Below are positions 1 to 18,476 of a stretch of DNA of 23,550 nucleotides, one piece after another. Origin of the DNA: an uncultured Nitrososphaeraceae archaeon (GTDB taxonomy: Archaea; Thermoproteota; Nitrososphaeria; Nitrososphaerales; Nitrososphaeraceae); contig CAWIMJ010000045.1 in NCBI GenBank assembly GCA_963837175.1, positions 1 through 23,550 on the forward strand. Direction: 5' to 3'. The notes beneath the pieces are model-generated. The model made no database searches. It saw nothing but the letters and a program-made list of their open reading frames with translations, and had not been told where the DNA came from. Position 1 is the first letter of the stretch; each line of letters begins with the position of its first letter. A program made the position numbers and the translations under genes.

Positions 1-468
1 ATCGTAGTTAGCAATTGTAAGAGCATTAACAACATGCCTGACACCTATACCTTTTCTCTTAACTAATTTGTATAACATTAGAAATGGGTCGATATCGCCT
101 TTAATCTCTTCATAAACCATAATTAGATTGTATAATTGTTTTAGCTTCCAATAATCTTTGTAGAATTTAGTTGCCTCTGATTCTCCCAGGTTTAATGCAA
201 CAACTACTTCTAATGGAGTCTTACCTTCTGAAAAGAGTTTGTAGGCTTGGGCAGATAGAGACAAGTGTTGTTCTTTTTCCTTCGCAGCATCATCATTACA
301 TTGTTCTTCTTTTAATCCTTCAGTCTTCTCTTCCATTACCTTATTCAAAATAACTCCTATATCACGTGGAGATATTCTTGCCTCCTTAGATATTTCACGA
401 TAGGTTTTGCCCTGATTGTAAAGCTCTAGTACAAGTCTTTCTTTTTCCTGTCTAGTTAATATCGTCAT
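1..468 (-). CDS. HTH + coiled-coil hypothetical protein (partial, 3' end beyond the window)
   Basis: Manual translation from ATG at 468 is open to base 1: MTILTRQEKERLVLELYNQGKTYREISKEARISPRDIGVIL...SAQAYKLFSEGKTPLEVVVALNL...ATKFYKDYWKL. It has an N-terminal HTH and is homologous to the broken gene at 8921-9901. It is absent from the ORF track because it has no stop in the window. Confidence 0.85.
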   Translation of the reverse strand, partial: MTILTRQEKERLVLELYNQGKTYREISKEARISPRDIGVILNKVMEEKTEGLKEEQCNDDAAKEKEQHLSLSAQAYKLFSEGKTPLEVVVALNLGESEATKFYKDYWKLKQLYNLIMVYEEIKGDIDPFLMLYKLVKRKGIGVRHVVNALTIANYD

Positions 469-771: not shown

Positions 772-951
772 AATATCCCCGGTATAACGGGTATCACCGG
801 ATTGATAAATTTAAGCGTGAATTTATCCATTCCTAGCCGGTGATATATGACTTATTGGAATATAATATCCCCGGTGATATCACCGGTCGCTTTGGGCTAA
901 AATTGAGCGTGATTTATAACTCGCCGGGGATTCGGGGATACCGGCGATATT
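772..951. repeat. 180-bp iteron/palindrome element, copy A (putative replication origin)
   Basis: Three 9-mers of the TATCVCCGG type at 774-800, an inverted unit at 837-845, the perfect palindrome CCGGTGATATCACCGG at 871-886, and three inverted units at 924-949. A TTGAGCGTGATTT-like box occurs at 811 and 903. Confidence 0.85.
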
Positions 952-1141
952 ATACATATTTTCATAGTTCGGGCGCTAATGTATTGTTAATACTCTATTG
1001 ATATTAGCTACAATTGGTCTAACCTGCGTTTACCTAGCCGGGTTCAGTCGGGTTTGGTCCCTGCATGTAAAAGGGTTCACCTGCTGCCTATTTAAAGGCT
1101 GCTTGAAACCTAATAACGTTCCAGCATAAGAATTATTTTCG

Positions 1142-1539
1142 TTATTGGATGTAAGATGTTGGTGCATTGACATGGGATGTTGTAACATTTGAACCTGGGA
1201 CCTTTGCTTTACCAAGGCTTAATTCCTTAATCAAGTTGCCGTCTCCATATCCCGCCCAAGTCTCTCCATCTTTTACACTTAAATTTGAATAATCATAAGA
1301 AGTGCTATTAACGGCCATATTATAGTTCCTAATCATAGCAAGATTTCCTAGTTCTGGAAACAAGCCATTTTTTAAATTAAAGGTAATTCAACTTGACCTA
1401 ATGCTTTCAGCTTGTTCTTTATTATGCTCTTTATCTTATATTCATAAGATGTGGACAGTTGAGTTTTTCCTGAAAACCAGTCCATTTCAGTCTTTTTTAA
1501 TAGTGATGGTTTAATAGAGAGGTGAGTTTGCTGTGCCAT
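1142..1539 (-). pseudogene. Frameshifted ORF reading through a tRNA 3' fragment; possible N-terminal fragment of an att-split (SSV1-type) integrase
   Basis: ATG 1539 gives MAQQTHLSIKPSLLKKTEMDWFSGKTQLSTSYEYKIKSIIKNKLKALGQVELPLI with a stop at 1372-1374. A frameshift near 1375 joins it to ORF 1142..1363, whose LGKAKVPGSN is the translation of tRNA anticodon/T-arm sequence. The integrase assignment is inferred from this architecture. Confidence 0.45.
1187..1218 (-). tRNA. tRNA-Thr(GGT)-like fragment (anticodon loop to T-loop), truncated; att-like
   Basis: Minus strand reads GCC TT GGT AA AGCAA AGGTC CCAGG TTCAAAT: anticodon loop, 3' anticodon stem, variable loop, 5' T-stem and T-loop. The 3' T-stem and acceptor strand are missing. 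Confidence 0.65.
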
Positions 1540-1751
1540 TTACATATCCATTTTCTTAGAAGCTCACGTTTATCTTTTCGGTATATGTTTGTTAATTTGA
1601 GGAATAATAGATATTGCAATAATAAGAGCAGTAAATTCCAACTTTTAGCGCTAAGCTTTTTGAGCCTTCTCTAACGCACGTTGACTTGATACCTTGACCA
1701 CAGGAGGAGCATTTAGCCATAGATACGTTTTGGCCTTATGGCTTTCTATTA

Positions 1752-1785
1752 AAGTCAACGCTATGCCAGCCTGAGCTACCAAGGC
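1752..1785 (-). tRNA. tRNA-Thr-like 5' half (acceptor strand, D-arm, 5' anticodon stem), degenerate
   Basis: Minus strand reads GCCTTGG TA GCTC AGGCTGGCA TAGC G TTGAC TT, with a TATA-like TTATATATA ~20-27 nt upstream (1803-1812). No T-arm follows. Confidence 0.6.
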
Positions 1786-1871
1786 GCTGCCATGTAACAT
1801 AAATATATATAATAAAGAACAATATTTCTTTGTCTTATAACTTTAAATCATAGAAGACATTATCTTTTTCG

Positions 1872-3332
1872 TTGAGGTATACAAAAGGTCACATCATTAT
1901 ATCTTTTCTATTACTTTTAGTTTTAATTTTAATATTAAGCTTCCTACCAATAATAAATCTAGCACAAGCTTCTAGTTCTTCTGATTCTTCTTCTAGCACT
2001 AGTTCTAGTTCTACAGATGATATCCCTACCACAATTCATAATACAAAGTCTAAACCTCTACCGGGAGGACCTACACTTAATGATGCTAATCTAAACTTAG
2101 AACAGATCTTTACTGGACTTGATCATCCTACCAGTATGGCATTTGTAGGTCCAAATGACATTTTAGTGACAGAAAAAAATACAGGTGTGGTAAAGAGAAT
2201 CATAAATGGTCAATTAAATCCGGAAGCACTTCTTGATGTAAGTGTTGCTAATCTAGCTGAGAGAGGAATGTTAGGAATTGCTGTATCACAACATGAAAAT
2301 GGCACTACTTATGTTTTCTTATATTATACGGAATCTAGCAGCGCAACAGATGGTGATGATGTTGATTCAGAAGAAAATGTATTAGGCAATCGTCTTTACA
2401 GATATGAATTAGTAGACAATCAGTTAGTAAATCCAAAATTACTTTTGGATCTTCCAGCGCATCCACCACCAGGTAGAGAAAATGCTGAAAGAGCGCATAA
2501 TGCTGGTAAGGTAATGATCGGCCCTACTGATAATTATGTATACGTTGGTATTGGTGATGTTATAGGTTATAGAGGACAAGCTCAGAATGTTCTTGATGGA
2601 GCACCACTTGATGGAACTAGCGGCATACTTAGAGTGACACAGGATGGTCAGGTACAACTAAATCCTCCACTAGGATCCACACAGCCAATGAGTCCTTACT
2701 ACTATGCCTATGGTATACGTAATACTTTTGGAATGGACTTTGATCCTATGACTGGAAAATTATGGGATACAGAGAACGGCCATGAATTTGCAGATGAAAT
2801 TAACCTAGTTGAACCGGGATTTAATAGTGGATATTCAAAGATTGAAGGTTTTGTTAAAGATGCAATTAAAGAAGTTTCAGAGGATGATTCAGAGGAAGAT
2901 TCTTCATCAGAGACAACAACAACAGCAACAACAGCAACAACAATAAATCCTGCTACTGATTTAGTTAATTTTGGTGCAAATAGCCAATATAGCGATCCAG
3001 AGTTTGTTTGGACTGCAACACTTGGTGTAACTGCACTTAAATTTCTCAACTCCGATAAATTAGGAAAACAATACCAAAATACTATGTTCATAGGTGATAC
3101 TAATCTTGGCTGGCTCTATAATTTTAAATTAAATCCTGAAAGAACAGGATTGTTGTTTGCTGCTGGTAGTCCGCTTACAGATAAAATTGCAGATACTCCA
3201 GATGAAATGCAGGAAACAATATTTGGAAAAGGATTTGGTGTAATTACTGATATACAAGTTAGCCCGTATGATGGTAGTTTATATGTTCTTACTTATGGTG
3301 GATCAATCTATAAAATATATTCTTCTCTATAG
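1872..3332 (+). CDS. Secreted PQQ-dependent glucose/sorbosone dehydrogenase family protein
   Basis: Hydrophobic N-terminal signal, GLDHPTSMAF, ERGMLGIA, HNAGKVMIGP, YAYGIRNTFGMDFDP, LWDTENG and DEINLVEPGFNSG motifs. Ser- and Thr-rich linkers. Confidence 0.92.
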   Translation: MRYTKGHIIISFLLLLVLILILSFLPIINLAQASSSSDSSSSTSSSSTDDIPTTIHNTKSKPLPGGPTLNDANLNLEQIFTGLDHPTSMAFVGPNDILVTEKNTGVVKRIINGQLNPEALLDVSVANLAERGMLGIAVSQHENGTTYVFLYYTESSSATDGDDVDSEENVLGNRLYRYELVDNQLVNPKLLLDLPAHPPPGRENAERAHNAGKVMIGPTDNYVYVGIGDVIGYRGQAQNVLDGAPLDGTSGILRVTQDGQVQLNPPLGSTQPMSPYYYAYGIRNTFGMDFDPMTGKLWDTENGHEFADEINLVEPGFNSGYSKIEGFVKDAIKEVSEDDSEEDSSSETTTTATTATTINPATDLVNFGANSQYSDPEFVWTATLGVTALKFLNSDKLGKQYQNTMFIGDTNLGWLYNFKLNPERTGLLFAAGSPLTDKIADTPDEMQETIFGKGFGVITDIQVSPYDGSLYVLTYGGSIYKIYSSL

Positions 3333-3579
3333 AATAGGTATAACAGAGCCAGTGTAGTTTTTGTCTAATAATAATTCATGACAACAGATACTTCATTTTC
3401 ATTGGTGTCTGATTTGCAGATATATATAATAAAGTATTGACATATAATTTTTTAGATTGATTTGACCTTGAAACATCTACTTTCTTCTTATAGTAACGCT
3501 TTGTAAAGTACTATAGTTTGATCACCTTTGAGAATGCAATATAAAAAATCAAAATGACAGCATAAAATAATAACACGAA

Positions 3580-3820
3580 GATGCAAAATAATAATATACC
3601 AAGAATAACTCCTCTACTCTACTAGCAGTCTCAATCCTAGGCAGCAGTGATGGAAGTTGCAAACTGTCAATAGCTTTAGTACTAGCGTCCACAATTATAC
3701 AGCAAGCAAATGCACAGAGTACAATTTCAAGTTCGAACAAAAACAGAAGAACAAATGCAGGTACGCTACTGGAAGTACTGTCTGTCTATCTTTCCATTTA
3801 ATAGCTATAAAGCCTTAGAT
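3580..3820 (+). pseudogene. Possible broken small secreted peptide gene
   Basis: One frame gives a signal-like IALVLASTIIQQANAQ and another gives YNFKFEQKQKNKCRYATGSTVC. No single intact ORF covers both. Confidence 0.3.
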
Positions 3821-3868
3821 AGATCATTGTCATCGTCAGAGAGAAATAAAGAAGAACAAGAAGAAGAG

Positions 3869-4015
3869 ATGAGAAATAACAAGATCTCATACCTTTGCAG
3901 CAAGTGTGGAAAGACTTTCGCAACGAATCAAAATGCATTGAATCACACAAACGATTATCACAAAAGCAAGAACTCCAAAGAATTCACAGACCACCTGATG
4001 CAAGAAGAATGGTGA
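3869..4015 (+). CDS. Small C2H2 zinc-finger protein (48 aa; likely start at ATG 3869 rather than 3710)
   Basis: YLCSKCGKTFATNQNALNHTNDYH matches C-x2-C-x12-H-x4-H. Confidence 0.6.
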   Translation: MRNNKISYLCSKCGKTFATNQNALNHTNDYHKSKNSKEFTDHLMQEEW

Positions 4016-4303
4016 GAAGAACAAGAAGAAAACAGAAGTAGAATAAGAAAGAAGGGATCCTAAAGAACTTCTCTTCTATCTTAATATCGTATAACGAAAA
4101 AAGATGTAGTGCACCAATTCATTGTCAGGTTGCCATGTATGATATCTATCAGGGTTACCGTTATTTCTCCAAAATTCTAGTAATTCTAATCTACATGATG
4201 TATTCGTCAAAGGTAGGAGGAATAGCCAAGTACTAAATAATAATAATAATAATATTGTTACAAATCTGGAGAAAACAACTACTACTATTATTTCATTTGT
4301 TAT

Positions 4304-5908
4304 TTAGTAATTGCTTCTAATTTCAATTTCTTTTGCTGCAGGAGATTGTCGCATACTTGAATAGGGATAATTTTTGAAATTATACTTAGTTTTGTCATCT
4401 GGAACAAGTCTGTCTATTGTTTGTGAATCATTATAGAGTGATTTCATTAGGATAGTGGAACGTTTGTCATTAGTTCCTGATATAATCTTCATAAACCCTT
4501 GGTCGGCAACAAGAATATATCTTTCACTTTTGAGCGGCCTTCCGCTGAACATTCCTTTTTCATAAAAGGGCTTTGTCAAAGCCGTGTCTGGGCATCGGAA
4601 AATAAATTGGAGATGCTACCAATGTTACCGGATTGGTATTGTTAGTATCATCATCTTTATTCGGTAACTTTTGAACAAGTACAGCCAATGCTTTATATGC
4701 AGCTGAATTTACATTTGTCATAATTAGCATAGTAGTAGATACCAACCCAAAAGTTATAATTCCAGAAATTATAGCAAATGGCAATATTTGCTGAAGCTTA
4801 TAATAATATTTCTTCTTGATAATTATTCTTATTTTATCTGGTAGCTCTACAAGAAACCTAGATGCTGCAATACAAAATGCAGGAATTAGCGGCATCAGGT
4901 GAAATGACGAAACATAGCCTATAAAATAGAGAAATATGAGAAATGGAATAACCCACAACAAAAGAAAGAAATCTCTCTTTACTGCTCCATAAATCAAGCC
5001 AGCTATGCTAAGTACAAACAAGATAGGATCTATCTGAAGAAAGGTGTGTAGTGTTCTACTTAATGGACTACTTGGTCTCTCCGTCGTTTGCCATAAGATA
5101 CCATGTTTCCATTGATCAAATTCTCCAATCACCATGGCATGAGCAGGCCAAATTAGTGGTATTAAAATAACAGGAATAAACCATAGTCCAAGATTTCTTA
5201 GTTTATGACCATTAGTATTACTATTATTATAAATTAGAAATCCTACTAACGGAATCATTGTAAAGACTGGAACTTTTGTAAAGATTGACAATCCTAAAAA
5301 TGCGCCAGAAAGTAAAATCATAGAAATTGCTTTATATCTAAGAGAGTTATTGTTGCTGCTACTACCATTGTTGTCCTTTTCTTTTGTTATCTTTAAATCT
5401 TTTAAGTAAACTGCCAATAGTATTGACGTTAGAAGGAAAGGCACTTGAATTGTCTCTAAGAATATCCTTCTAAAAAACCAACCATAAGGCATTACTGCAA
5501 AGAGAATAGCTGCAATTAAAGCAAGATTTCTGTTATGGTATCTATGCTCAGTTATCTTATAAATAAGAAAAGTATCAGCTACTGCAAGTATTCCCATCAA
5601 GACTCTTGGAGCAAGGTAAAGCATTTGTACCTGAATGTAGTACATTATCACTACCATCACCACTACCAGTATTATCAGAAGGATTCAATAATGAATCAGG
5701 ATAACCAACAATTCCTAATACACCTGCCAAGAAAATTTGTCCAAAATATGGAGCTCGCATAGCGGGCTAGCGGGTCTATCCCTGTACCATCCAAAATAGA
5801 CATTGCCTTTCGCATATAATGACCTTCATCAATATGCAAAGAAGGATATCCTAAAGGATTCCAAAGATGAGTAAATGCTGATAAAGCTAGTGGTATAGCC
5901 AGTAGCAA
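4304..5908 (-). pseudogene. Membrane glycosyltransferase, GT39/PMT/ArnT-like (GT-C fold), split by three frameshifts
   Basis: ORFs 5696..5908 (LHIDEGHY), 5575..5760 (PYFGQIFLA), 4560..5663 (multi-TM; RRIFLE, LSIFTKVP) and 4304..4579 join into one protein with shifts near 5762, 5645 and 4570. The true start is uncertain. Confidence 0.8.
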
Positions 5909-6521
5909 GATGCTTTTTTGCCGGATGTTAACCCTAACATATTGACTTAGGTGCAGAGATTATACTTACTACTCTATGGTTATTTTTATATGTTTTTACA
6001 TTTTTTGGCAATTAAAGCAAATCATATCTTCATATGATTTAAAATTAAAAGTAGCAAAACTTGTTTCCATATTTGCTTCTTCTGATCTTCTTAAAGAATT
6101 GATAACAAATAAAAAGATAATTCTTTCTTTTCCTTGGATAGCTAACAGAAGCAAAAGCATGAATTCAGGTAGATTCATCATCATAATAAACAATCAAGCA
6201 CTTAGTCTAAGTATCAAATTATTCATCTACAAATATTGTCCTACTTATTAGGAGACGGAAGATGTTGTGTAGACTTAAATTAAGATACTTAACTTATTAT
6301 ATTAGCAAGAACTAGAACTTGGATTGTAGAATTATTTTAATCTAATCTCTATTATGAGTAGATTTGCACATTCAAAGGTAAGAGAGTATAAAATTGTTCG
6401 TTGGGAAGTAATAAGAATCAAATAGAGATTATATATTTACTTTTAGTTTTTCTGTTGACATAATCTGTATAACTATATTATAAAGATGGCACTAGTAATA
6501 ATAGTAGAGCAATAGTAAGAA

Positions 6522-8013
6522 ATGCCTTCCTTTCCTTTTGCATTGATATCAGTCTTTAGAGTAACTACACTATACCTCATCATTATTCTAACTTCACTAT
6601 TAACATCGCCAATAGGATATAATGATATTATTATTACTTATGCTCAGGAAGAGATTGAAGGTGTTAATGCTTCTATTAGAGGAGAAGAAGAAGAGGAAGA
6701 ACTACCATATATCAAAGATCCTAATTTAGGAGTAGAATTAGTTTCCAAAGGACTTGAATTCCCTACTTCTATGGCATTTTTAGGTCCAGACGATATATTG
6801 GTTTTAGAGAAAGAAAAAGGTACAGGTACAGAGGATTGTTAATGGTAATATGTTACTAACTCCTGTTCTTACCGTTAATGTTGCAACTGAAGTTGAAAGA
6901 TGTATGTGCGGAATTGCTGTGTCAAAAAATGATAGCAATGGGAATGTATATGTTTTCTTGTATTTTACTGAAGCAGGTGGAAGTAGTGTCAGTGATTTTA
7001 GTAGTGAGCCTGTAGGTAATCGTCTTTATAGATATCAATGGGTAAATGATCAATTAGTAAATCCTAAACTCTTACTAGACTTACCAGCAACACCTGGACC
7101 ACGTCATAATGGAGGTGTAGTTATGATAGGTCCGGATAATAACGTATACGTAATAATTGGAGATGTTGATGGTCATCAAACTCAAGCTCAAAATATAGAA
7201 TCTGGAGAAGAGCCTGACGGAACTGGCGGTATACTTAGAATTACTCAGGATGGTAAACCGGTAGTAAGTAGTGTTAGTGGTGGTGATGGTGGTATTCTTG
7301 GTAATACTTATCCACTTAACCTATACTATGCATATGGAATACGAAACAGCTTTGGATTTGATTTTGATCCTGTAACTGGGAATTTATGGGATACTGAGAA
7401 TGGTCCAGGCTATGGAGATGAGATTAATTTGATAGAACCTGGATTTAACAGTGGATGGTTAGAAATTACAGGTTTTCCATCATCTTCTTCTTCTACTTCT
7501 ATTGAAGACGACGATGATGATGGATTTAATCCTGATGAAGATTTAGTTAGCTTTGATGGAAAAGGAAAGTACAGTGATCCCGAATTTGAATGGACTTTTA
7601 CTTTAGGACCTACTGCACTAAAGTTTCTTAATTCAGATAAATTGGGAATAGAGTATGTAAATGACATGTTTGTGACAGACGTAGTTACTGGAAGAATTTA
7701 TCATTTTGATTTGAATGAGGACAGAACAGAGCTAATTCTTTCCGGCTTGTTAGCAGATAAAGTCGCTGAAACAAGAGATACTGGTATAGAAAATATATTA
7801 TTTGCAGAAGGGTTTGGTGGAGTTACAGATCTAGAATTAGGTCCTGATGATGGTTATCTTTATGTTGTTTCGCTTGGTCATGGAGCAATATACAAGATTC
7901 TTCCAGCTGCCAATGTAATTCCAACAACTAATGCAGGAGGAGAAGAAAATAAGGATATCAAAGGAGTAGAAGAGGAAGAAGAGGAAGAAGAGGAAGATAG
8001 TGACGAAGATTAG
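6522..8013 (+). pseudogene. Second PQQ-dependent glucose/sorbosone dehydrogenase family gene, one frameshift near 6826
   Basis: 6522..6842 (signal peptide, GLEFPTSMAFLGPDDILVLEK) and 6850..8013 are paralogous to 1872..3332. Removing one G from ggtacaggtacag restores EKGTVQRIVNGNML. Acidic C-terminal tail. Confidence 0.88.
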
Positions 8014-8324
8014 AATAAAAAGGGTAGGGAGATGGGTGTTTTGAAAAGTTATCTAAACGATGAATCCTTCGTTTTTCCCTCCTAGAGATGGAGAAAAGGA
8101 CTAGCTAGCTGTTATTCTACCACTCAGCAATTTGTCTTACTACATGATAAGTTTCTGGCTCTTCCTATTCCGTAGATATCACTTTGATTAGGTTGGCTGA
8201 TAATGGGTGACGGCGATTATACAATACAAATCATTGTTATATTTCAGAGGCTTTGTATGGTAATCATTACCATTTGCTACCAGACTTTATATAGTCCTTA
8301 ATACCCATTAATAATGTATTTAAA

Positions 8325-8795
8325 ATGGAATATGATAGATCAAAAAATGAAAGCAGCACTGTAGGATCAAATAGTGCAACTCATGCATTTGACACAGTAA
8401 GAGAAAATTTTGTTAGAGCAGTAGATCAGATGGCAAGTGTTCAACCACAATATACACAAGCAATCTCTAATCTTCAGCTAGATTATATCCAGGCGGCAAA
8501 GAATGTAATAGAGACTACAATTTCAGCTCAAAAGCAATTGGTAGGAAGTTGGAACATCCCAGTGTCAGGGCCATACACAGAGCAATTTACAAGACAATCA
8601 AATGAAATTACTAACAACACATTAAGAGCACTTGACATTAACAACAAGCTAGCAATCAATGCAGTAGACGCAGCAAGAGAGAATCTGAAAGTCTGTAGTA
8701 GAGCAGTAGATGCAGCAACAGAATTTAGCAATAATATCGCAAAGGCCTGTACAGCCTTCTCTACGGATCAACAGCAACGATTTTCCAAGCAGTAA
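8325..8795 (+). CDS. Alpha-helical hypothetical protein, possibly phasin-like
   Basis: 156-aa A/N/Q/T-rich amphipathic-helix pattern with a TATA-like TTTATATA at ~8286-8293. The phasin resemblance is inference only. Confidence 0.65.
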   Translation: MEYDRSKNESSTVGSNSATHAFDTVRENFVRAVDQMASVQPQYTQAISNLQLDYIQAAKNVIETTISAQKQLVGSWNIPVSGPYTEQFTRQSNEITNNTLRALDINNKLAINAVDAARENLKVCSRAVDAATEFSNNIAKACTAFSTDQQQRFSKQ

Positions 8796-8920
8796 AAACT
8801 AACTTCTTTCTAATTTTTTAGAGTATATTTTCAATATTTAATTCATTTCAATAGTTTAATCTTTAGTTTTTATTCTTACTCTTCAATAAGCCATTTTTTT
8901 GTTAGTCAAATAAAACTTCA

Positions 8921-9901
8921 TCAGCAGCCATTATTACATTTGTTAGACTGCACGAAACATATTTGACTGGTTACATCATTCTGTACTGTATCATAAAGTC
9001 TGTTAGCTTCGTCTAGTATCATGTCTCTATAATCTTCAATATGCTGCAATGATGATTGTTGGATTGGTACTGATGATAATGATGCATTATCTACTATAAG
9101 ATCATTATATTTGCCAGAGTTCCGTCTTATTGCTTCAATAACTGATGCAAGAGCAAAATGTAAGAGTACTTTACCATCTGTAAGAAACTTACTAACTTCT
9201 TCTTCAACAGTCTTCTTAATTTTAACATATTCTCTGTCATCACCCTTAAAGCGGGTTATAAGAGCTTCTAATCTTGACATTTCATTATTGATATTTTCTG
9301 CCTCTTGTCTTTTGCGTTCACACAACATATTATAGGAATTCAGTAAAGCCTTAGTGCTTGCTATTTCATAATTCAAGGTGTGCAAATAGTTCTCCGTTTC
9401 TTCCCTTGTGCTTTGCATCTTGTCTACTTCATCTTTGGCCTGTTCATAGAGACTTTCCATATAGGGAAGTTTGTAAATAGCAATCTCTACAGCATTAACT
9501 ACTTGCTCAATGCTCATGCCTCTTTCCTTTACTAGTTGTTTGTATAACTTCAAAAATGTCCCTAGTTTACCATTTGTCTCTTTGAATATCGAATTGAGTA
9601 TATGCAGTCGATTTAGTCTCCAATATTCTCTGTACATCTTGGTTACTTCTGGCTCTCTCTGGTTAGTGTGACGGCGACTTCTACTGGTCGCTTACCCTTA
9701 GAATAATTCGTAAGCTCTACTAGACGTCTCTTCTTGCTGTTGCTGATGTTTATTTTGAAGCCGTCTGGATTCTTCTTCCTTTATGATAACGTGTATGTCC
9801 CGTGGTGAGATGTGTTCTATTTCTGCTATTTCAGCGTAGGTCTTATGCTGGTTGAAATATAGATCTATTACCTGCTTTCTTCTATCTTCCGTAATCTGCA
9901 T
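8921..9901 (-). pseudogene. HTH + coiled-coil protein, paralog of 1..468, with two frameshifts
   Basis: 9698..9901 (KTYAEIAEIEHISPRDIHVI...SSRAYELF), a bridging frame SKGKRPVEVAVTL, and 8921..9637 (MYREYWRL...FLKLYK...VVNAVEIA) align collinearly with the 1..468 protein. Shifts occur near 9700 and 9658. Confidence 0.8.
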
Positions 9902-10165
9902 TTATATCAAATAGTATAGATAATCGATCCTTAAAAAAGGAACGTTTTATGATACCATTTACTTTAATCTATATTTCTTTATTACCATCTACTTTCTTCT
10001 TTACAGTATTCTTCTTAAAACAATACAGTGTGAGCAGCTTTAAGATTTACATTATAAAATATCAAATCAATAGCATCTGCATATGCTGATTCAAAGGATC
10101 AACAGCAATAACCAATCAATGTTCATAATTAGATTTTCTGCAGTGAATTAGAGAGAGGTACGTAT

Positions 10166-10333
10166 AATATCACCGGAATCACCGGTATCGCCGGACTAAT
10201 AAATTTGAGCGTGATTTATCCAGTTTTAGCCGGCGATATATAACTTATTAGAATATAATACCCCGGTGATATCGCCGGTAGAATTGAATCTTAATTGAAC
10301 TCAATTTTGAGCATTCCGGGAATTCGGGGATAC
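10166..10333. repeat. Iteron/palindrome element, copy B (last unit missing)
   Basis: tatcaccgg-aatcaccgg-tatcgccgg at 10168-10194, inverted unit at 10230-10238, CCGGTGATATCGCCGG at 10263-10278 and two inverted units at 10316-10332. Box TTGAGCGTGATTT at 10205 with a degenerate copy at 10295. Confidence 0.85.
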
Positions 10334-10487
10334 ACAATGTATTTCACACAACAATAGATTAAATTCTAACAAGCAGGATTGTTACAATTATTCAGCTAGA
10401 CTAATGATGTATCTATCTATACATATATATCAAAAAAAATAAATGGTAGGTACACAGGTTTAGGATTCGCAGTTACAATATCTCCTC

Positions 10488-10845
10488 TCAAGCAGCAGGC
10501 ATGATATTGTAACGAGTTTCCTTTCCTGAACCAATCCTTTGAACTTTGAGCAAGCTATGTCCTTCACTTAGGTAGGCATCGATTTGTTCTGATGTTCTCT
10601 TACTTACAGTCCAGTACTTTTCATACTCCGGATTATTGGGGTCTTGTATTATGTATTGGAATCTCGACTTTTCTTCCATCAAATTCTTTCTCTACTGGCT
10701 GTATTTTCTCTGCATCAAATATCCAATTTGACTTCTCGCCAGGTTGTGGATTGAAGAATTTGCTATCTTTGTTTCTTAGTTCTGCATTGCGTTGAAGATT
10801 TTGTCTCGCTTTTTCACTTAATTCTTGTTCTTTCTGACTTGACAT
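10488..10845 (-). pseudogene. Putative ssDNA-binding (OB-fold-like) protein, one frameshift near 10665
   Basis: 10633..10845 (FFNPQPGEK...EFDG) joins 10488..10682 (RFQYII...KYWTVSK...LKVQRIGSGKETRYNI). The beta-rich pattern resembles phage/plasmid SSBs and the gene lies just downstream of the helicase-like gene. Function is inferred. Confidence 0.5.
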
Positions 10846-10951
10846 ATTCTATTCACTATTTCCTTTGTTCGTTTGGTTTTAGGCAAATTAGCATGACCCA
10901 ACCACGCCATACGAGGAGGCTTTGCCATAATGTGGTCATATTTCTGTGGAA

Positions 10952-13021
10952 TCACTTTGATTGTCCTTTGCATAGATGTTGTTTCATGAACCAAATATCC
11001 CCTTTTAGCTTACAGTTTTGACATGCAAAAATGTCGGAATGTCCTAAACGATGGATAGGAAGAGGAGAAGAAGTATGGATAATATCCCCGGAATCACCGA
11101 TATCACCGGATTGCTCACTTTGTGCTTGATTTTCAATATTTTCTTCCGGGGATATGTCCGGTGATATTGAACCGGTATCCCCGGTGATATCGCCGGGATT
11201 TTCAAGCCGAAGTTGTGCTTGATTTGGGTCTTCCGGTGATACCGGGCATTCCGGCGATATCTTCCGTATCTCTATTAGTGTTGTATTAGTTGAGCTATCT
11301 TTTGGTCTTTCTATTATGATTCCTATCTCTCTAAGATTTGTTGTGATTTCATTTAATCTACGGCTTAAAATGTTAGGAGCTTTAGGCCACAGATTGCTTC
11401 TTGTATCTATTTTTAGTTTTTCTGCAGCCTGCTCTAAATCATATAGTAGTTCGCTAGATGTACCTCTCCATATTCTACCGTCTTCTCCTTTCTTTAATTC
11501 TACAAATTTTATTATAGCAGTTGCGATTAGGCTGGATTCTAATGCTTTATCATTTTGTGCAGCAATATTTTTGTAGTATGCATTAAGAAACGCATTTTCT
11601 GGATATCCTAAGCATCTAGATATCACCTCACAAATCTCAGCCCAGTCAGCCATACGTGGATATTTTTTTAGCTGTACTTCTTTGAGTCTGTTTAATACTT
11701 TAACTAATGAATCAAAGATAAATCCCAAGACTTGTGGCTTTATTCTGTCATACTGTTTCCATAAGTGCTTCAGCTTACGTTTCTTCTCTTCAGGTATCCG
11801 TTTTAGATGTAAGATTAGTCCTCTCTCTAAAAGGTCTGGTCTTGTTGCTGCTACGTTTATTCCATTAAAACCCACGCATCTTCTAAATCTATAGATAAAG
11901 TCATCATCGTCTGAGTATAGGATTCTCTTTGAAAAGCCGTTACCAGTCACAGCTCTACATAACACATCAGAGATCCATGGTGGAATTTCTGAGACATTAT
12001 CATAATAAGCTATAAAGTTATGTGATAATTGTTGTACTAACTCTGCAACTTCTTTTGGAAACGACAGAGTAAGAGCTCCACATGGGTCCACTAGTGTCTT
12101 TATGAACTCCTGGAATGTCGATTTTGCCGCTCCCTGTTCACCATGAGGAATAAGAGCAGTTTTTGGAATATCTGGCGGTATAAATAAGGCTATGGTGTAG
12201 ACTTCAGCTAGAATTCTGTTTTCCTTATCATCCTTTGGTAAATTAGTAAGGTCCATAAATTGGGAGAATATGTCTTGAGGATATTTCTTTGTAGGATAGA
12301 CTTGGGGTAATTGGCTTCTATATCTCTTAAAGAGAATAGTTGATGAAGAAGATGAAGATGATGATGAAAGAAATCCATGCTTCTCAATCTTCCAGCCATT
12401 CTTTGTTATCTTTACAATCTCCCAGTTTTTATTGGTTAGATCATAGTAAATGACATTATCATCATCGTTTGCATCAGGATCTGAATCAATGTTACCAGCG
12501 ACTCTTACCTCAAGCTTTCTCTCATTATATAGTTCCTCTGCTTCCATTTTCAAAATAGTTTGAATTCGTGCAGCATCATCATTATTTAGCAGAGGAGATG
12601 GTGATGACAATGTTGTGTCACCTATAGTATCATATTCTTCTTGGTCATCAAAATTTTCTGCATCTAATAACTTCTCCTGCTGCTGTTCCTTTCTATAACC
12701 ATAATAGGCTTTAACAATCCAATCCTTAAAGCGGTTACTTCTGATTGGTATCGTTTCTATATGATCTCTTACTTTAATTGCTGCATATGGCTCACCAATC
12801 TGATCAACAAAAAGTTCTAGACATTTACTTTTAATTACTCCAAGTGCATCTTGAGCTTTGGTAATATTCTGTTTTTTATTTTCCACTCTTCCATTCTTCT
12901 TGTCTTTCTTTTCTTTCCTATTATTGTCATTTGTATTTGGTCTAGCAGGAGAAGTATTATTACCAGCGCTGCTACCAAAAACTTTGCCAACTAAACCATC
13001 GATGGAGGAAGAAGACGTCAA
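10952..13021 (-). CDS. Replication-associated P-loop ATPase/helicase (SF3/AAA+-like) with a C-terminal Zn-binding motif
   Basis: Walker A GEQGAAKST, Walker B-like IAYYDNVS, motif-C-like GFNGIN, and RPDLLERG. A wHTH-like segment (WRGTSSELL...WPKAPNILSRRLNE) and a terminal CQNC...HLC follow. No primase domain was recognised. Confidence 0.75.
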   Translation of the reverse strand: MTSSSSIDGLVGKVFGSSAGNNTSPARPNTNDNNRKEKKDKKNGRVENKKQNITKAQDALGVIKSKCLELFVDQIGEPYAAIKVRDHIETIPIRSNRFKDWIVKAYYGYRKEQQQEKLLDAENFDDQEEYDTIGDTTLSSPSPLLNNDDAARIQTILKMEAEELYNERKLEVRVAGNIDSDPDANDDDNVIYYDLTNKNWEIVKITKNGWKIEKHGFLSSSSSSSSSTILFKRYRSQLPQVYPTKKYPQDIFSQFMDLTNLPKDDKENRILAEVYTIALFIPPDIPKTALIPHGEQGAAKSTFQEFIKTLVDPCGALTLSFPKEVAELVQQLSHNFIAYYDNVSEIPPWISDVLCRAVTGNGFSKRILYSDDDDFIYRFRRCVGFNGINVAATRPDLLERGLILHLKRIPEEKKRKLKHLWKQYDRIKPQVLGFIFDSLVKVLNRLKEVQLKKYPRMADWAEICEVISRCLGYPENAFLNAYYKNIAAQNDKALESSLIATAIIKFVELKKGEDGRIWRGTSSELLYDLEQAAEKLKIDTRSNLWPKAPNILSRRLNEITTNLREIGIIIERPKDSSTNTTLIEIRKISPECPVSPEDPNQAQLRLENPGDITGDTGSISPDISPEENIENQAQSEQSGDIGDSGDIIHTSSPLPIHRLGHSDIFACQNCKLKGDIWFMKQHLCKGQSK
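11081..11261. repeat. Iteron/palindrome element, copy C, in frame within the helicase-like gene
   Basis: Triad at 11083-11109, inverted units at 11146 and 11158, CCGGTGATATCGCCGG at 11181-11196 and an inverted triad at 11233-11259. Box TTGTGCTTGATTT at 11120 and 11213. It encodes the ISP..SP../GD..GD.. low-complexity tail. Confidence 0.9.
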
Positions 13022-14594: not shown

Positions 14595-16013
14595 CTAATT
14601 TTCCTTGAGTATTTCTAATAGTTTGGCCGGGTTCTTTAGTAAATTCATGATCTCCTTCTGCGCTTCTTGCATAAACAAGATTTGTTCTTTTAGACCTTGA
14701 ACTTCTGTATCTTTCTGATTCTCTAAAGTTTCATTATAAGCATCATATGTTAATACCATCCTGCATTTAGCACAGAACTTGCTATCTGGTTTATTTGGTT
14801 CATTGCAATTAGGACATTGTTTTGGTTTTAATGCATCTGTTAGATTCTGATCTTTTGTAACTATTCCATATGCTTCTAATAGACTTTCACTTGCTTCATT
14901 TCCAAAATAATGTAAGTATTTCAAATGCATATGTGATTCTGGTGACCAGCCTGAAAATAACCGTAAAGTATGCTCTTTTAGAATTTTGGATTTCTCTGTT
15001 ATACTAGAATGTCTCCTAATATAGGGATTCCATGGTTTCTTTAATAGTTCTTTTATCTCTTGTTTATCTTCTTCTGGAATATCTCCTCTTCTTTCTTCTG
15101 CTGTTGCTACTAATTTTGGAAATAATCCTTTCTTATAATTATCATAAATCTTAGTGAGTGTTTTAGGTTTTAGACGTCTTCCTATACTCTTAGCATAACC
15201 ACAAATTAATGGAGCATTAAGATTTCCTTGTTGTGGATGTTCATCTATCCAATCTTTAACAAAAGGAATAGAATCTATTAGCGGGATAGTTCTACTGCCT
15301 GTCTTCCCATTTACAAGGACCTCTGCATATTGTTGTCCTGCGCTTGTAGTTTTAAAAGTAATATCTTTAAGTCTTAGTTTTAGAATTTCATGTGGTCTAC
15401 ATCCTGTATCTCTTGAAATCATATGATAACATTTATCACGTTTACTAGGACAGTATTTTAGAAATAAAAGGTCATCTTCCATAGTCCATAAATCACTTGG
15501 TTTGTAAATCGAAGTTTCTTTTCTTCTTAATTGAAGGATATTTTCTACTACTTGAGGCTTTACTCTTTTATGCGGTTCAATATCAGGATAATATAACCAT
15601 TTGAAGAATTTAATCAGTAAAACAGTATATTGATTATAAGTTCCAATCCATTTGTGCAAAGGGTCAGAGTTTTCAGGTTTGCGGTAACTATCAAGAAATA
15701 ACAAAATATCTTCTCTCAACATTTCTTTGAATGATTTCTTGTTATGATAAAACTTTGATAATTGGGTTAATACGTTGATATAATTTCTCTTATGATTATC
15801 TGAAAGATTAACCTCTGTTATGGTATTTAATATAAACTCTACAATAGCGATAGCGTTCTCTTTTGATACATTTCCTAAAAGGTTAGTAAATCGTGGTTCT
15901 AAACCTTCTGTTATTAGATTGATTTTTCTTTCTTCGGAATACGAATCCCCATAACGAGAATATCGTCTATTATCATATTTTGCATTTGCAGTTGTAATAT
16001 TATTATCAATCAA
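14595..16013 (-). CDS. Tyrosine recombinase/integrase with C-terminal zinc ribbon (SNJ2-like architecture)
   Basis: TGCRPHEIL (catalytic R), GKTG (K), PYIRRHSS (YxxRH), GWSPESHMHLKYLH (W and Y), then CPNC...CAKC and a short coiled coil. Confidence 0.9.
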   Translation of the reverse strand: MIDNNITTANAKYDNRRYSRYGDSYSEERKINLITEGLEPRFTNLLGNVSKENAIAIVEFILNTITEVNLSDNHKRNYINVLTQLSKFYHNKKSFKEMLREDILLFLDSYRKPENSDPLHKWIGTYNQYTVLLIKFFKWLYYPDIEPHKRVKPQVVENILQLRRKETSIYKPSDLWTMEDDLLFLKYCPSKRDKCYHMISRDTGCRPHEILKLRLKDITFKTTSAGQQYAEVLVNGKTGSRTIPLIDSIPFVKDWIDEHPQQGNLNAPLICGYAKSIGRRLKPKTLTKIYDNYKKGLFPKLVATAEERRGDIPEEDKQEIKELLKKPWNPYIRRHSSITEKSKILKEHTLRLFSGWSPESHMHLKYLHYFGNEASESLLEAYGIVTKDQNLTDALKPKQCPNCNEPNKPDSKFCAKCRMVLTYDAYNETLENQKDTEVQGLKEQILFMQEAQKEIMNLLKNPAKLLEILKEN

Positions 16014-16181
16014 CCTGTTCTCTTTGTTATTAAAAGAGACTAATAAGGTAGTATTCCAAACTATATTACAATAATGTAATAACGCATATACTATAATTTG
16101 TCAGAAGAGGCCTCTATTATTCTATATGTGTAAAGTAATAGTAGTATCACTAGCAGTAGTATAAGGTTATTACTTTTGTAA

Positions 16182-18476
16182 CTATCCTTTTGTTGTTGTT
16201 GCTGTTGTTGTAGTTCTTGTACTAGTAGTAGTAGATGGCATGTACACTTCCTTTTGATCTTTGTCTGAATAGATTTCCTCCTCCTGTCCTTTCTTTGTTG
16301 ATTTTCTCACTCCAAACTTTGGCTTATACCTTCCAAGTAATAGTGAGTTTCCAACTACAGTTACAGAGCTCATTGCCATTGCAAGACCTGCTAGCATTGG
16401 AAGCCATCCAAATATTCCTACACCAAGAAAAGGTACTAATGCGCCTGCAGCGATTGGAATCAAACCTGTATTATAAACAAATGCCCAAAATAGGTTTTGT
16501 TTTATCTTTGACACTGTCTTTCTTCCAAGATCAAGTGCTGTGACAACATCCCTCAGATCATCTTTTATCAGTATAATTCCTCCGGTCTCTTTGGCAACAT
16601 CGGTACCAGAACCTATTGCTATTCCTAGATCAGCTCTTGCTAATGCAGGTGCGTCATTAATACCGTCACCTACCATTGCAACTACTTTTCCTTCTTCAGC
16701 TTTTAGTTTAGAGATTACTTGTTCTTTTTGTTGTGGCAATACTTGAGCAATAATCCTACTAATACCGAGTATGGATGCAACTGCTCTGGCAGTTCTTTCA
16801 TTATCTCCTGTTAACATAATTACTTCTATTCCCATTGATTTTGTAAGTATATCAATGGCCTCTTTTGCATTTTCTTTTATAGTATCTGCTAGAGCGATTA
16901 TTCCTGCAAGTTTCTTATCAATCGCAACAAGAGTAGCTGTTTTTCCTTGAATTTCAAGTTGTTTAAGAGTTGTATCTAGGCTTTCAGTAACTGGTATATG
17001 ATTATTATCCATTATTAGTTTTCTATTTCCAATAATAATTGTATGATCTGCATATACTGCTCTAAGACCATAACCCGATACAGCTTCAAATGAATCTGGA
17101 TTTGATACCAGAATTCCCTTTTCTTTAGCATAATTAACAACTGCTTGACCTAGAGGATGTTCTGATCCTGATTCTGCAATTGCAGCAAGCCTAAGCAATT
17201 CATTTTCACCTATTCCAGACAAATCCACTATATCAGTTACAGACGGCTTACCTTTTGTCAAGGTCCCAGTTTTATCAAATACTATTGTATTTACTTTCCT
17301 TGCAATTTCCAAATACTCTCCTCCTTTAAATAGAATACCATTTTCAGCTCCTTTTCCAGCACCCATCATTAACGCTGCAGGTGTAGCTATTCCAAGAGCA
17401 CAGGGACATGCTATGATTATTACAGATACAAATGCCAAAAGTGAAAATGTCAGTCCTATATCACCAATAAAATACCATCCAAGTCCTACTCCTACCGCTA
17501 TTGCTAAAACTGCTGGGACAAAGTATTTAGCAACTTGGTCTACTAACCGTTGCATTTGTGCCTTTCCTGTTCGTGCTTCTTCAACTAGCGTGATAATCTG
17601 CGAAAGTACAGTATCCTGTCCTACTTTTGTTGCTTTGACTTTCAGCAGCCCACTTTTGTTGATAGTAGCACCTATAACTTCGTCGCCTTTAGATTTATCT
17701 ACTGGAATACTTTCACCTGTTATGGCTGATTCATCTATAGAAGAAGAACCGTCTATCACAATTCCATCAGTCGGTATTCTTTCTCCAGGTCTTATAACTA
17801 AGACATCACCTTCTCGAATCTGTTCAACAGGTATTTCTATCTCCTGCTGCTTCTCATCCTCCTGCTCTTCATTTTTTCCTTTTTCTCTCCTTATTACCCT
17901 AGCCATTCTGGGCTGAAGATCAAGTAATTTTCTTACCGCACTGGATGCTTTCTCTTTAGTTCTTGTTTCAAGTAATCTTCCAACTAATATTAAGGTGATA
18001 ATAATTGCTGCAGTTTCAAAATACACTGATTCAAATGGAAAATATCCAGGAGCCATAGTAACTATTGCACTATATAAATAGGCAGCAGTTGTTCCTATTG
18101 CGATAAGTGTATCCATATTTGATGCCCTAGCCTTAATACCGTCCCATAAACCTCTATAGAATCTCCAACCTATCCAAAACTGTAAAGGAGTAGCTAATGC
18201 TAGCATTATATAATTACTATAATGCATAAAAGCCATAGGAAAGAGAGCGCCAAACTGTGCAGGAAACATATGGGGTAAGGTAAGAATTACCAAAGGTATT
18301 GTTAGTGCAATGCTTATAGCAACATAGATCTTTAGTTTTCTTAGTTCTTTTTCAGGCTGAGTAAACTCCTCTAGGCATTGCTTACTGCAAAAGTAATATT
18401 CTCTTCCATCTTTATTATACCTTATAGAACTGGGCTTTTCTTCTACAAACATTCCACAAACAGGATCTTTAGCCAT
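16182..18476 (-). CDS. copA: Cu(I)-translocating P1B-type ATPase with N-terminal YHS/TRASH domain
   Basis: DPVCGM...YYFCSKQC, TGES, CPCALG, DKTGT, SEHPL, GDGINDAP, TM7 YN and TM8 MAMSS. Confidence 0.95.
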   Translation of the reverse strand: MAKDPVCGMFVEEKPSSIRYNKDGREYYFCSKQCLEEFTQPEKELRKLKIYVAISIALTIPLVILTLPHMFPAQFGALFPMAFMHYSNYIMLALATPLQFWIGWRFYRGLWDGIKARASNMDTLIAIGTTAAYLYSAIVTMAPGYFPFESVYFETAAIIITLILVGRLLETRTKEKASSAVRKLLDLQPRMARVIRREKGKNEEQEDEKQQEIEIPVEQIREGDVLVIRPGERIPTDGIVIDGSSSIDESAITGESIPVDKSKGDEVIGATINKSGLLKVKATKVGQDTVLSQIITLVEEARTGKAQMQRLVDQVAKYFVPAVLAIAVGVGLGWYFIGDIGLTFSLLAFVSVIIIACPCALGIATPAALMMGAGKGAENGILFKGGEYLEIARKVNTIVFDKTGTLTKGKPSVTDIVDLSGIGENELLRLAAIAESGSEHPLGQAVVNYAKEKGILVSNPDSFEAVSGYGLRAVYADHTIIIGNRKLIMDNNHIPVTESLDTTLKQLEIQGKTATLVAIDKKLAGIIALADTIKENAKEAIDILTKSMGIEVIMLTGDNERTARAVASILGISRIIAQVLPQQKEQVISKLKAEEGKVVAMVGDGINDAPALARADLGIAIGSGTDVAKETGGIILIKDDLRDVVTALDLGRKTVSKIKQNLFWAFVYNTGLIPIAAGALVPFLGVGIFGWLPMLAGLAMAMSSVTVVGNSLLLGRYKPKFGVRKSTKKGQEEEIYSDKDQKEVYMPSTTTSTRTTTTATTTKG

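Follow-up and report, generated by a model that had tools for sequence, protein, structure and literature searches.

Several described replication systems resemble the locus analysed here, a ~180-bp array of 9-nt iterons in the 3′ part of a gene for a 689-aa helicase-like ATPase, carried on a 23,550-nt contig of an uncultured Nitrososphaeraceae archaeon (GCA_963837175.1, CAWIMJ010000045.1). In the lambda O/ori system, the origin iterons are located inside the initiator's own gene, where they code for the linker between two domains. The Rep proteins of the Staphylococcus aureus pathogenicity islands (SaPIs) are described as self-loading initiator helicases whose C-terminal winged helix binds 6-12 iterons directly 3′ of the rep open reading frame (ORF), and the iteron sets are reported to be opposite in orientation and to have short AT-rich spacers between inverted iterons (PMC9371898; bioRxiv 10.64898/2026.10.17.759575). 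The replication loci of plasmids pFP11, pFP1 and pWTY27 are reported to comprise rep genes and an iteron; RepA of pFP1 and of pFP11 binds the iteron, and RepA of pWTY27, assayed by electrophoretic mobility shift and footprinting, was reported on a ~105-bp inverted repeat of 7-8-bp repeats in both orientations (PMC3583192). In pRN1, a ~100-nt stem-loop 54 bp after the orf904 stop codon is described as needed and sufficient in cis, and as kept in structure, not in sequence, among relatives (PMC4234260).

The window was the whole contig (C45) of a 3,810,681-bp (3.81-Mb) genome with 34% G+C. On comparative evidence, the array inside the helicase gene, hereafter copy C, is probably the replication origin of a small integrated element and bound by the element's own helicase. 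Copy C consists of the following parts.

11081..11261, minus strand: copy C, two-unit iteron/box array, candidate origin of the intact element, in the 3′ part of the helicase gene
11083..11109, plus strand: left iteron set, 3 tandem 9-mers TATCCCCGG, AATCACCGA and TATCACCGG
11120..11132, plus strand: box 1 TTGTGCTTGATTT, coding for NQAQ on the minus strand
11146..11196, plus strand: inner iterons, two inverted 9-mers and the palindrome CCGGTGATATCGCCGG (11181-11196)
11213..11225, plus strand: box 2 TTGTGCTTGATTT, 16 nt past the palindrome
11233..11259, plus strand: right iteron set, 3 inverted 9-mers

Each unit of the array is made of forward iterons, a ~35-nt spacer holding the box, and reverse iterons, and two such units stand head-to-head. 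Two further copies are present in the window and three elsewhere in the genome.

772..951, plus strand: copy A, orphan non-coding tail, ~300 bp upstream of a gene for a helix-turn-helix (HTH) coiled-coil protein
10166..10333, plus strand: copy B, orphan tail shortened in the right iteron set, ~265 bp upstream of a second HTH gene
C8:88439-88638: copy D, orphan
C34:76240-76438: copy E, orphan
C49:25218-25419: copy F, 3′ part of a second helicase gene, interrupted by stops (aa 511-666, 64% identity)

The sequence-only reading had counted three copies with one layout; the count holds for the window, with a genome total of six, and the layout and spacings of copies A, B and C were all confirmed at their positions. 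The left iteron set consists of 3 forward 9-mers of the TATCNCCGG type (774-800 in A, 10168-10194 in B and 11083-11109 in C), and box 1 starts exactly 10 nt after it (811-823, 10205-10217 and 11120-11132, respectively). An inverted 9-mer follows (837-845, 10230-10238 and 11146-11154), with a second inner one in copy C only (11158-11166), and then the central palindrome CCGGTGATATC[AG]CCGG (871-886, 10263-10278 and 11181-11196). Box 2 lies exactly 16 nt past the palindrome (903-915, 10295-10307 and 11213-11225); in copy B it reads TTGAACTCAATTT, with 3 mismatches to the consensus proposed earlier, and this is the commoner form among orphan copies. In most orphan copies, box 2 has turned into a small palindrome, AATTGAACTCAATT. 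The right iteron set starts 8 nt (A), 8 nt (B) or 7 nt (C) past box 2 and has 3 inverted 9-mers in A and C and 2 in B. The terminal inverted arms of the element are 42 nt long and 79% complementary.

The genome contains 162 ATCNCCGG sites on both strands, 42 of them inside the six elements, and clusters of at least 4 sites per 250 bp were found only in the six elements, so that the array is not a product of chance. Copy C accounts for nine of the sites; its left-hand set has 3 in forward and its right-hand set 3 in reverse orientation. A search of 60 other genomes recovered the element from 5 of the 6 that belong to the same genus and from none of the 54 outside it. An Rfam scan of the window gave no family match, and no orc1/cdc6 gene was seen among the scanned window ORFs. 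A miniature inverted-repeat transposable element was considered and rejected: the borders carry no duplication, and each orphan adjoins a member of one gene family and runs colinear with the tail of the helicase gene.

On the minus strand, copy C forms part of the coding sequence of the 689-aa ORF, where it reads ...KISPECPVSPEDPNQAQLRLENPGDITGDTGSISPDISPEENIENQAQSEQSGDIGDSGDIIHTS... The codons for ISPE and SGDI are mutual reverse complements with a one-base shift, and the inverted iterons are therefore seen as two kinds of peptide repeat. In the array tail, 5 of 7 proline codons are CCG, whereas the remainder of the gene uses CCG for 1 of 29 (Fisher p 3e-4) and copA for 2 of 29; it is the DNA word, not the peptide, that is being kept in the tail of copy C. 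When folded as a single strand, copy C gave -85.2 kcal/mol (z -7.55) in a structure that pairs its outer iteron sets, and copy A folded as DNA gave z -3.17. The box (peptide QNxAQN; coding-strand DNA ~AAAATCARGCACAAAAT) is kept in L042, L062, L066 and L070, Nitrososphaerales lineages with differing iterons; a shared factor may bind it, it may mark a start site, or it may be no more than a conserved peptide.

The gene around copy C is the only intact copy in the genome and is divided as follows.

10952..13021, minus strand: 689-aa helicase-like ATPase with deviant Walker A motif GEQGAAKS, putative self-loading initiator helicase
11252..11479, minus strand: winged-helix domain, aa 515-590, presumed reader of the iterons (AlphaFold2 models; aligns to the C-terminal domains of 7ola and 7pds)
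11063..11245, minus strand: disordered linker, aa 593-653, coded by the iteron array (predicted local distance difference test score, pLDDT, below 50)
10952..11062, minus strand: small zinc-finger-like C-terminal domain, aa 654-689, and stop codon

The zinc-finger-like end is retained in homologues P0006, P0007, P0009 and L043-L045. A first full-length AlphaFold2 model, built from 18 sequences, had a poor ATPase core and gave weak D5/E5 rows only in Foldseek (E ~0.06); a domain model of aa 240-600, derived from 88 sequences (pLDDT 93.9), was used in its place. The top structural match of this model was the SaPI5 primase-helicase 7ola_A (Z 14.8, root-mean-square deviation 4.3, 267 residues aligned, model 1-338), and PriRep1 with double-stranded DNA (7pds_A) matched with a Foldseek E of 2.5e-7 and Z 13.2 (291 residues aligned, model 1-352, including the winged helix). 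Other matches were the C-terminal region of NrS-1, AsfvPrimPol, MCM, the SCCmec protein Cch and poxvirus D5. In the predicted structure, a superfamily 3 (SF3)/AAA+ core is followed by a C-terminal winged helix. The winged helix is also covered by the SaPI, NrS-1, African swine fever virus and Cch matches; because the MCM rows score almost as well, the core is to be read as a general replicative AAA+/SF3-like fold. The protein resembles SaPI Rep in fold alone, not in sequence. The wing motif TNTR pairs with CCGG iterons and GxR(I/K)IK with TATCGTC, a correspondence that is confounded by relatedness and is not evidence.

The ATPase belongs to a very large family: an E threshold of 0.001 admits 16,679 representative proteins and one of 1e-30 still 7,021, with members in 29 of 301 genomes of the class (the present one included), in many bacterial phyla and in 32 plasmid records. 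Longer members carry N-terminal fusions to Prim-Pol and PriCT_1, PriCT_2, Toprim or DUF3854; Prim-Pol, for example, is present in P0004, L072 and L090. These primase-type fusions and the residence on small plasmids suggest a replication role for the family. In L048 (G014:C226), the frame of the helicase homologue continues for more than 900 aa into family B DNA polymerase-like sequence with a DxxSLYPS-like motif; this could reflect a fusion, or read-through into a neighbouring gene.

The two-unit layout recurs at the 3′ ends of the homologues in archaea and bacteria. The iteron is 7-9 nt long and lineage-specific, forward and reverse arms match each other, and the array is coding in some homologues and non-coding in others. 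The iteron was YATCTCCGG in L042, ATATCGTC in L070, CATCCTCACC in L062 (central palindrome GGTGAGGATCCTCACC), ATCCTTGTCAC in L066 and [GT]CTCACC in L055. In the autonomous 12-kb Methanothrix plasmid pH6Ac, the iteron is CCGCCTCC and the array codes for a mid-protein linker. The array of L130 and L142 (iteron CTTGTCAC) is wholly non-coding, and its order of 3 forward 9-mers, spacer, 3-5 reverse, 1 forward, spacer and 2 reverse is the layout of the window element. Because the arms of the array are reverse-complementary, distant homologues show peptide pairs of their own (VSSE/SDDT, SPS/GEG and ASP/GDA). An iteron core of ~GCGTCC is common to the unrelated bacterial loci L097, L107, L111 and L091 and to pFP11 (L170:4260-4520); many other homologue iterons centre on CGTCA or TGTCAC, and the ATCNCCGG of the window is an outlier.

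For a quantitative comparison, 103 loci with complete ORFs were used. The winged-helix anchor pattern was unmatched in 37, which were dropped; 21 with tails shorter than 20 aa were set apart, and 45 were left. Exact inverted 7-mer pairs in the tails were compared with those in 300 synonymous-codon shuffles, and 27 of the 45 tails beat at least 99% of the shuffles; 30 of the 45 beat every equal-length upstream window of their own gene and the other 15 did not. At the short-tail loci, the arrays in the non-coding 400 nt past the winged helix exceeded all 200 shuffles in 11 of 21 (mononucleotide shuffles, which keep base composition only). In a scan of 95 loci with no prior placement of the window, the strongest 300-nt inverted-repeat window lay no more than 450 nt from the stop codon in 46, versus ~17% expected by chance (binomial p 1e-12), and among homologues of genus g2 without tail iterons (n=5) it lay right at the stop codon in 4. 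Related loci are not independent in any of these family counts. Homologous ATPase genes thus carry the element, and its conservation at the DNA level, as proposed from the window alone, was upheld by covarying arms, by repeats in excess of synonymous shuffles, and by arrays that are non-coding in some homologues. Comparison likewise supports the proposal of a cis site acting as DNA, namely an origin bound by the 689-aa ATPase, with the amendment that the copies are not equivalent and only copy C lies in an intact replicon.

Compared with SaPI Rep and PriRep, the window locus shares a helicase core with a C-terminal winged helix, an integrated element with its own integrase, and short iterons at the 3′ terminus of the rep ORF, two or more on each side and opposite in direction. 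The differences are that the window array is inside the ORF, codes for a linker and is followed by a zinc finger, whereas SaPI iterons come after the ORF; that the window iterons are 9 nt long versus 5-7 nt; that the window lacks the ~100-bp central AT-rich region of SaPIs; and that its host is archaeal, its protein has no primase part, and sequence similarity is undetectable. A homologue on pFP11 (30.5% identity over aa 191-596, tblastn E 3e-51; ORF 25356-27077) lies beside a primase/polymerase gene, with 9 iterons of the AGGGACGC type 550-800 nt downstream (GCGTCCC 5 forward and 4 reverse, L170:4260-4520). It resembles the window locus in having a RepA-type protein and a nearby array of ~10-nt direct and inverted repeats, and differs in that the window has no primase gene and the pFP11 array is non-coding and past a small gene. 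pWTY27 was not among the records of the plasmid collection searched. With pRN1 ORF904, which has prim-pol, SF3 helicase and winged helix, the locus shares an archaeal element and a 3′ stem-loop that copy C can form; the pRN1 stem-loop is non-coding and without defined iterons, and the window protein has no prim-pol Pfam match. No ORF904 helicase-domain structure was among the structural matches. Lambda O belongs to an unrelated protein family and is not a helicase, and its array is mid-gene with an adjoining AT-rich region. The element is thus of a known kind, an iteron/stem-loop origin at the 3′ end of a primase-helicase-winged-helix gene, and the earlier suggestion that it is an undescribed kind did not hold, given the 3′ iteron or stem-loop origins of SaPIs, pRN1 and the Streptomyces plasmids pFP11 and pWTY27.

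Binding, melting and firing at copy C would follow by analogy with SaPI Rep. In such a scheme, the winged helix of the element's own helicase would read the 9-nt iterons, and the two head-to-head units would load helicase rings on the array. The DNA might then open in the modestly AT-rich spacers or in the box, or in an extruded stem-loop, after the SaPI Rep/PriRep helicase model. Because the array overlaps the gene, it is also translated, as a disordered linker peptide, and copies A, B, D, E and F would be tails left once the rest of the helicase gene had been lost.

The backbone of the integrated element would be an integrase, small ORFs and then the helicase, represented in the window, besides the helicase gene, by two features.

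14595..16013, minus strand: tyrosine recombinase with C-terminal zinc ribbon, right-hand element end beside host copA
10488..10845, minus strand: two small ORFs of 70 and 64 aa that follow the helicase gene, element backbone

Integrase homologues are found upstream of helicase homologues in L073, L079, L080 and L082, and a homologue of the 64-aa ORF follows the helicase gene in L076. The region 10488-10845 with the zinc finger and part of the element is 84% identical in G005:C36. That contig carries a segmental duplication (64481-65362 and 99054-99933; L157 and L158) ~34.5 kb apart, each part of which holds a truncated element copy, a remnant of the zinc finger and both small ORFs (83-84% identity to window 10363-11231), as well as the same DUF1348, Rieske and thioredoxin-like genes. 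Host-like DNA from ~16065-16313 marks the rough right end of the integrated element, and one 1,905-nt sequencing contig leaves the window sequence at 16065, a weak hint for this border. No convincing direct repeat was found between 15951-16330 and the left part of the window (chance 11-mers only), and the left border was not placed. The best sequencing runs contained at most 0.22 of the sampled words (all contigs); four placed were scattered short pieces without a circular junction.

Elsewhere in the window, paralogous glucose/sorbosone-dehydrogenase-like genes lie at 1872-3332 and 6522-8013, ~4.6 kb apart, the second being broken between ORFs 6522-6842 and 6850-8013. A short repeat at 527-703 recurs alone on C13, C25, C29, C41 and C54 (74-82% identity) and another at 1040-1300 on C29 and C34 (88-93% identity), and the genome is a mosaic of such short-repeat modules.

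All frames of the orphan copies A, B, D and E are interrupted by stops, yet these copies remain colinear with the helicase tail and still carry remnants of its zinc-finger-coding flank. They stand 265-490 bp upstream of an HTH-coiled-coil gene in fixed orientation, and their neighbours are ordinary host-type genes. The HTH genes in the window are as follows.

1..468, minus strand: HTH-coiled-coil gene by copy A, running off the contig end
8921..9901, minus strand: HTH-coiled-coil gene by copy B, split into ORFs 9698-9901 and 8921-9637

More than 25 loci of this HTH-coiled-coil family are present in the genome, and every genome of the genus has many (339-374 aa when whole, identities 38%-90%); the HTH of the family gives weak matches to IS630 and sigma-70 region 4. 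The gene was rejected as a part of the element: tblastn found no homologue in the helicase-homologue loci L042-L150. To the right of copy D, a truncated tyrosine-recombinase ORF (C8:87743-88378) reads towards D and ends ~60 codons short.

Thirteen orphan copies were aligned and proved 80-88% alike throughout, motifs about as much as spacers, with some decayed CCGG cores; no clear contrast was seen where motifs better kept than spacers had been looked for, so that spacers diverging while motifs persist, as first described, could not be upheld among these copies. The stops in copy A are present as reported, but the argument drawn from them for conservation as DNA is weak, since the orphans are as evenly alike as young relics would be. 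The right-hand ends vary among copies B, L033, L030, L035 and L036, which fits independent deletions ending at a palindrome. In the five other genus genomes searched, no intact helicase gene was found, tail fragments only (two of these genomes being 76% and 85% complete), and the helicase body had no DNA-level match there. On balance, copies A, B, D and E are best taken as relics. It is less likely, and indeed rather doubtful, that the orphans are live, either as helicase-less satellite origins with HTH-coiled-coil cargo fired in trans or as host-kept decoys giving immunity or incompatibility; live orphans would explain why whole arrays occur in 5 of 6 genus genomes though the intact helicase gene is absent from the five searched.

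Several results weigh against copy C being an origin bound by its own helicase. Pfam, NCBIfam and PHROGs gave no family for the 689-aa protein, which has no primase domain, and an 18-member family profile searched against sequences of the Protein Data Bank at E up to 1 found no Rep/PriRep and nothing relevant. There is no long AT-rich stretch between the iteron sets, the spacers being 35-37 nt long with an AT fraction of 0.58-0.76 versus 0.65 for the window. The synonymous-shuffle test was failed by 18 of the 45 tails and the shuffle test by 10 of the 21 short-tail loci, and the strongest window lay elsewhere in 49 of the 95 loci scanned. Because orphans persist in 5 of the 6 other genus genomes and the five searched hold no intact helicase gene, their conservation cannot be credited to the 689-aa protein. 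The pFP11 homologue is likely, though not certainly, the assayed RepA.

The array might instead serve in recombination, either as an attP whose arm-type sites are used by the tyrosine recombinase or in resolution, and the orphans would then have arisen next to HTH genes by integration and excision. Breakpoints cluster at the element borders (at ~960-967 for A and D, within the right iteron set for B and L033, and past box 2 for L035 and L036), the orphans are always beside the same gene family, the integrase is 3.3 kb away, and an insert at the left junction varies in length (38 bp, 242 bp or 3.1 kb). Copy C, however, is whole in the integrated state without a second copy at the integrase end, the same arrays lie beside helicase homologues on autonomous plasmids and in bacterial loci, and the fold ties the protein to origin-binding helicases, which leaves recombination only a small chance of being the function.

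An action as RNA, by a long hairpin at the mRNA 3′ end that terminates, stabilises or pauses, would account for the strong fold of the RNA strand of copy C (-85.2 kcal/mol, z -7.55) and for the conserved gene-end position. The arms are, however, tandem direct repeats of differing number and period (9 vs 12 nt in C), which a hairpin does not need; a further coding domain lies downstream of the array in C and in pH6Ac, where a terminator would truncate the protein; and the proteins of relatives are reported to bind such arrays as DNA (PMC3583192, PMC9371898). We regard this alternative as quite improbable.

For the orphans only, it was considered whether they control the adjacent HTH-coiled-coil gene as operators or promoter regions to which its HTH protein binds. 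The distance of 265-490 bp upstream and the fixed orientation of A, B, D and E would agree with it, as would the persistence of orphans in genomes where no intact helicase gene was found and the even conservation across the element. Most HTH loci, however, are without the element, and C25:1233-1952 and C34:89153-89824 are examples of loci that share the upstream region, up to A position 691-713, without it; the orphans retain zinc-finger-coding flank remnants and line up colinearly with the helicase tail; and iterons have decayed from CCGG to CCAG or CCGA in L030 and L033. An operator function thus has little probability.

That the array has no function as DNA and merely mirrors a repetitive, low-complexity acidic/serine peptide tail is largely refuted and barely credible. 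In its favour, the tail is disordered and of low complexity, and the genetic code itself makes Ser/Asp/Glu-rich repeats partly self-complementary. Yet in 27 of the 45 tails the repeats are lost on synonymous shuffling, which leaves the peptide unchanged; the tail makes use of rare CCG codons; where the ORF stops early, the same layout is found in non-coding arrays; and orphans full of stops retain it.

The preferred interpretation of copy C as the element's origin places a known kind of origin in a new setting. What is new is that the array overlaps coding sequence, as the lambda O iterons do, that it occurs in integrated elements of ammonia-oxidising archaea, and that the arrangement extends across a huge family without a name in Pfam, NCBIfam and PHROGs. 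In SaPI5, where the last 12 residues of prirep are depicted next to the iterons (bioRxiv 10.64898/2026.10.17.759575), such an overlap may already exist. The main survey of integrated elements in ammonia-oxidising archaea, in the parts available, names replication proteins and not origins (PMC6563490), and no description of an origin of such elements, or of coding-region iterons with a primase-helicase, was found in the literature (supplements not covered). The analysis provides a ~180-bp candidate origin and its presumed reader for the integrated elements of these archaea. One stretch of DNA would here serve both as a protein-binding array and as coding sequence, with the array dictating the peptide (ISPE/SGDI in the window, and VSSE/SDDT or SPS/GEG in others). 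Across the 16,679-protein family of bacteria and archaea, the apparent rule is that two head-to-head iteron units lie at the 3′ end of the gene. If this rule is true, origin and specificity would be readable from sequence for thousands of plasmids and islands, and the same arrays would supply shuttle-vector parts for archaea that are without genetic tools.

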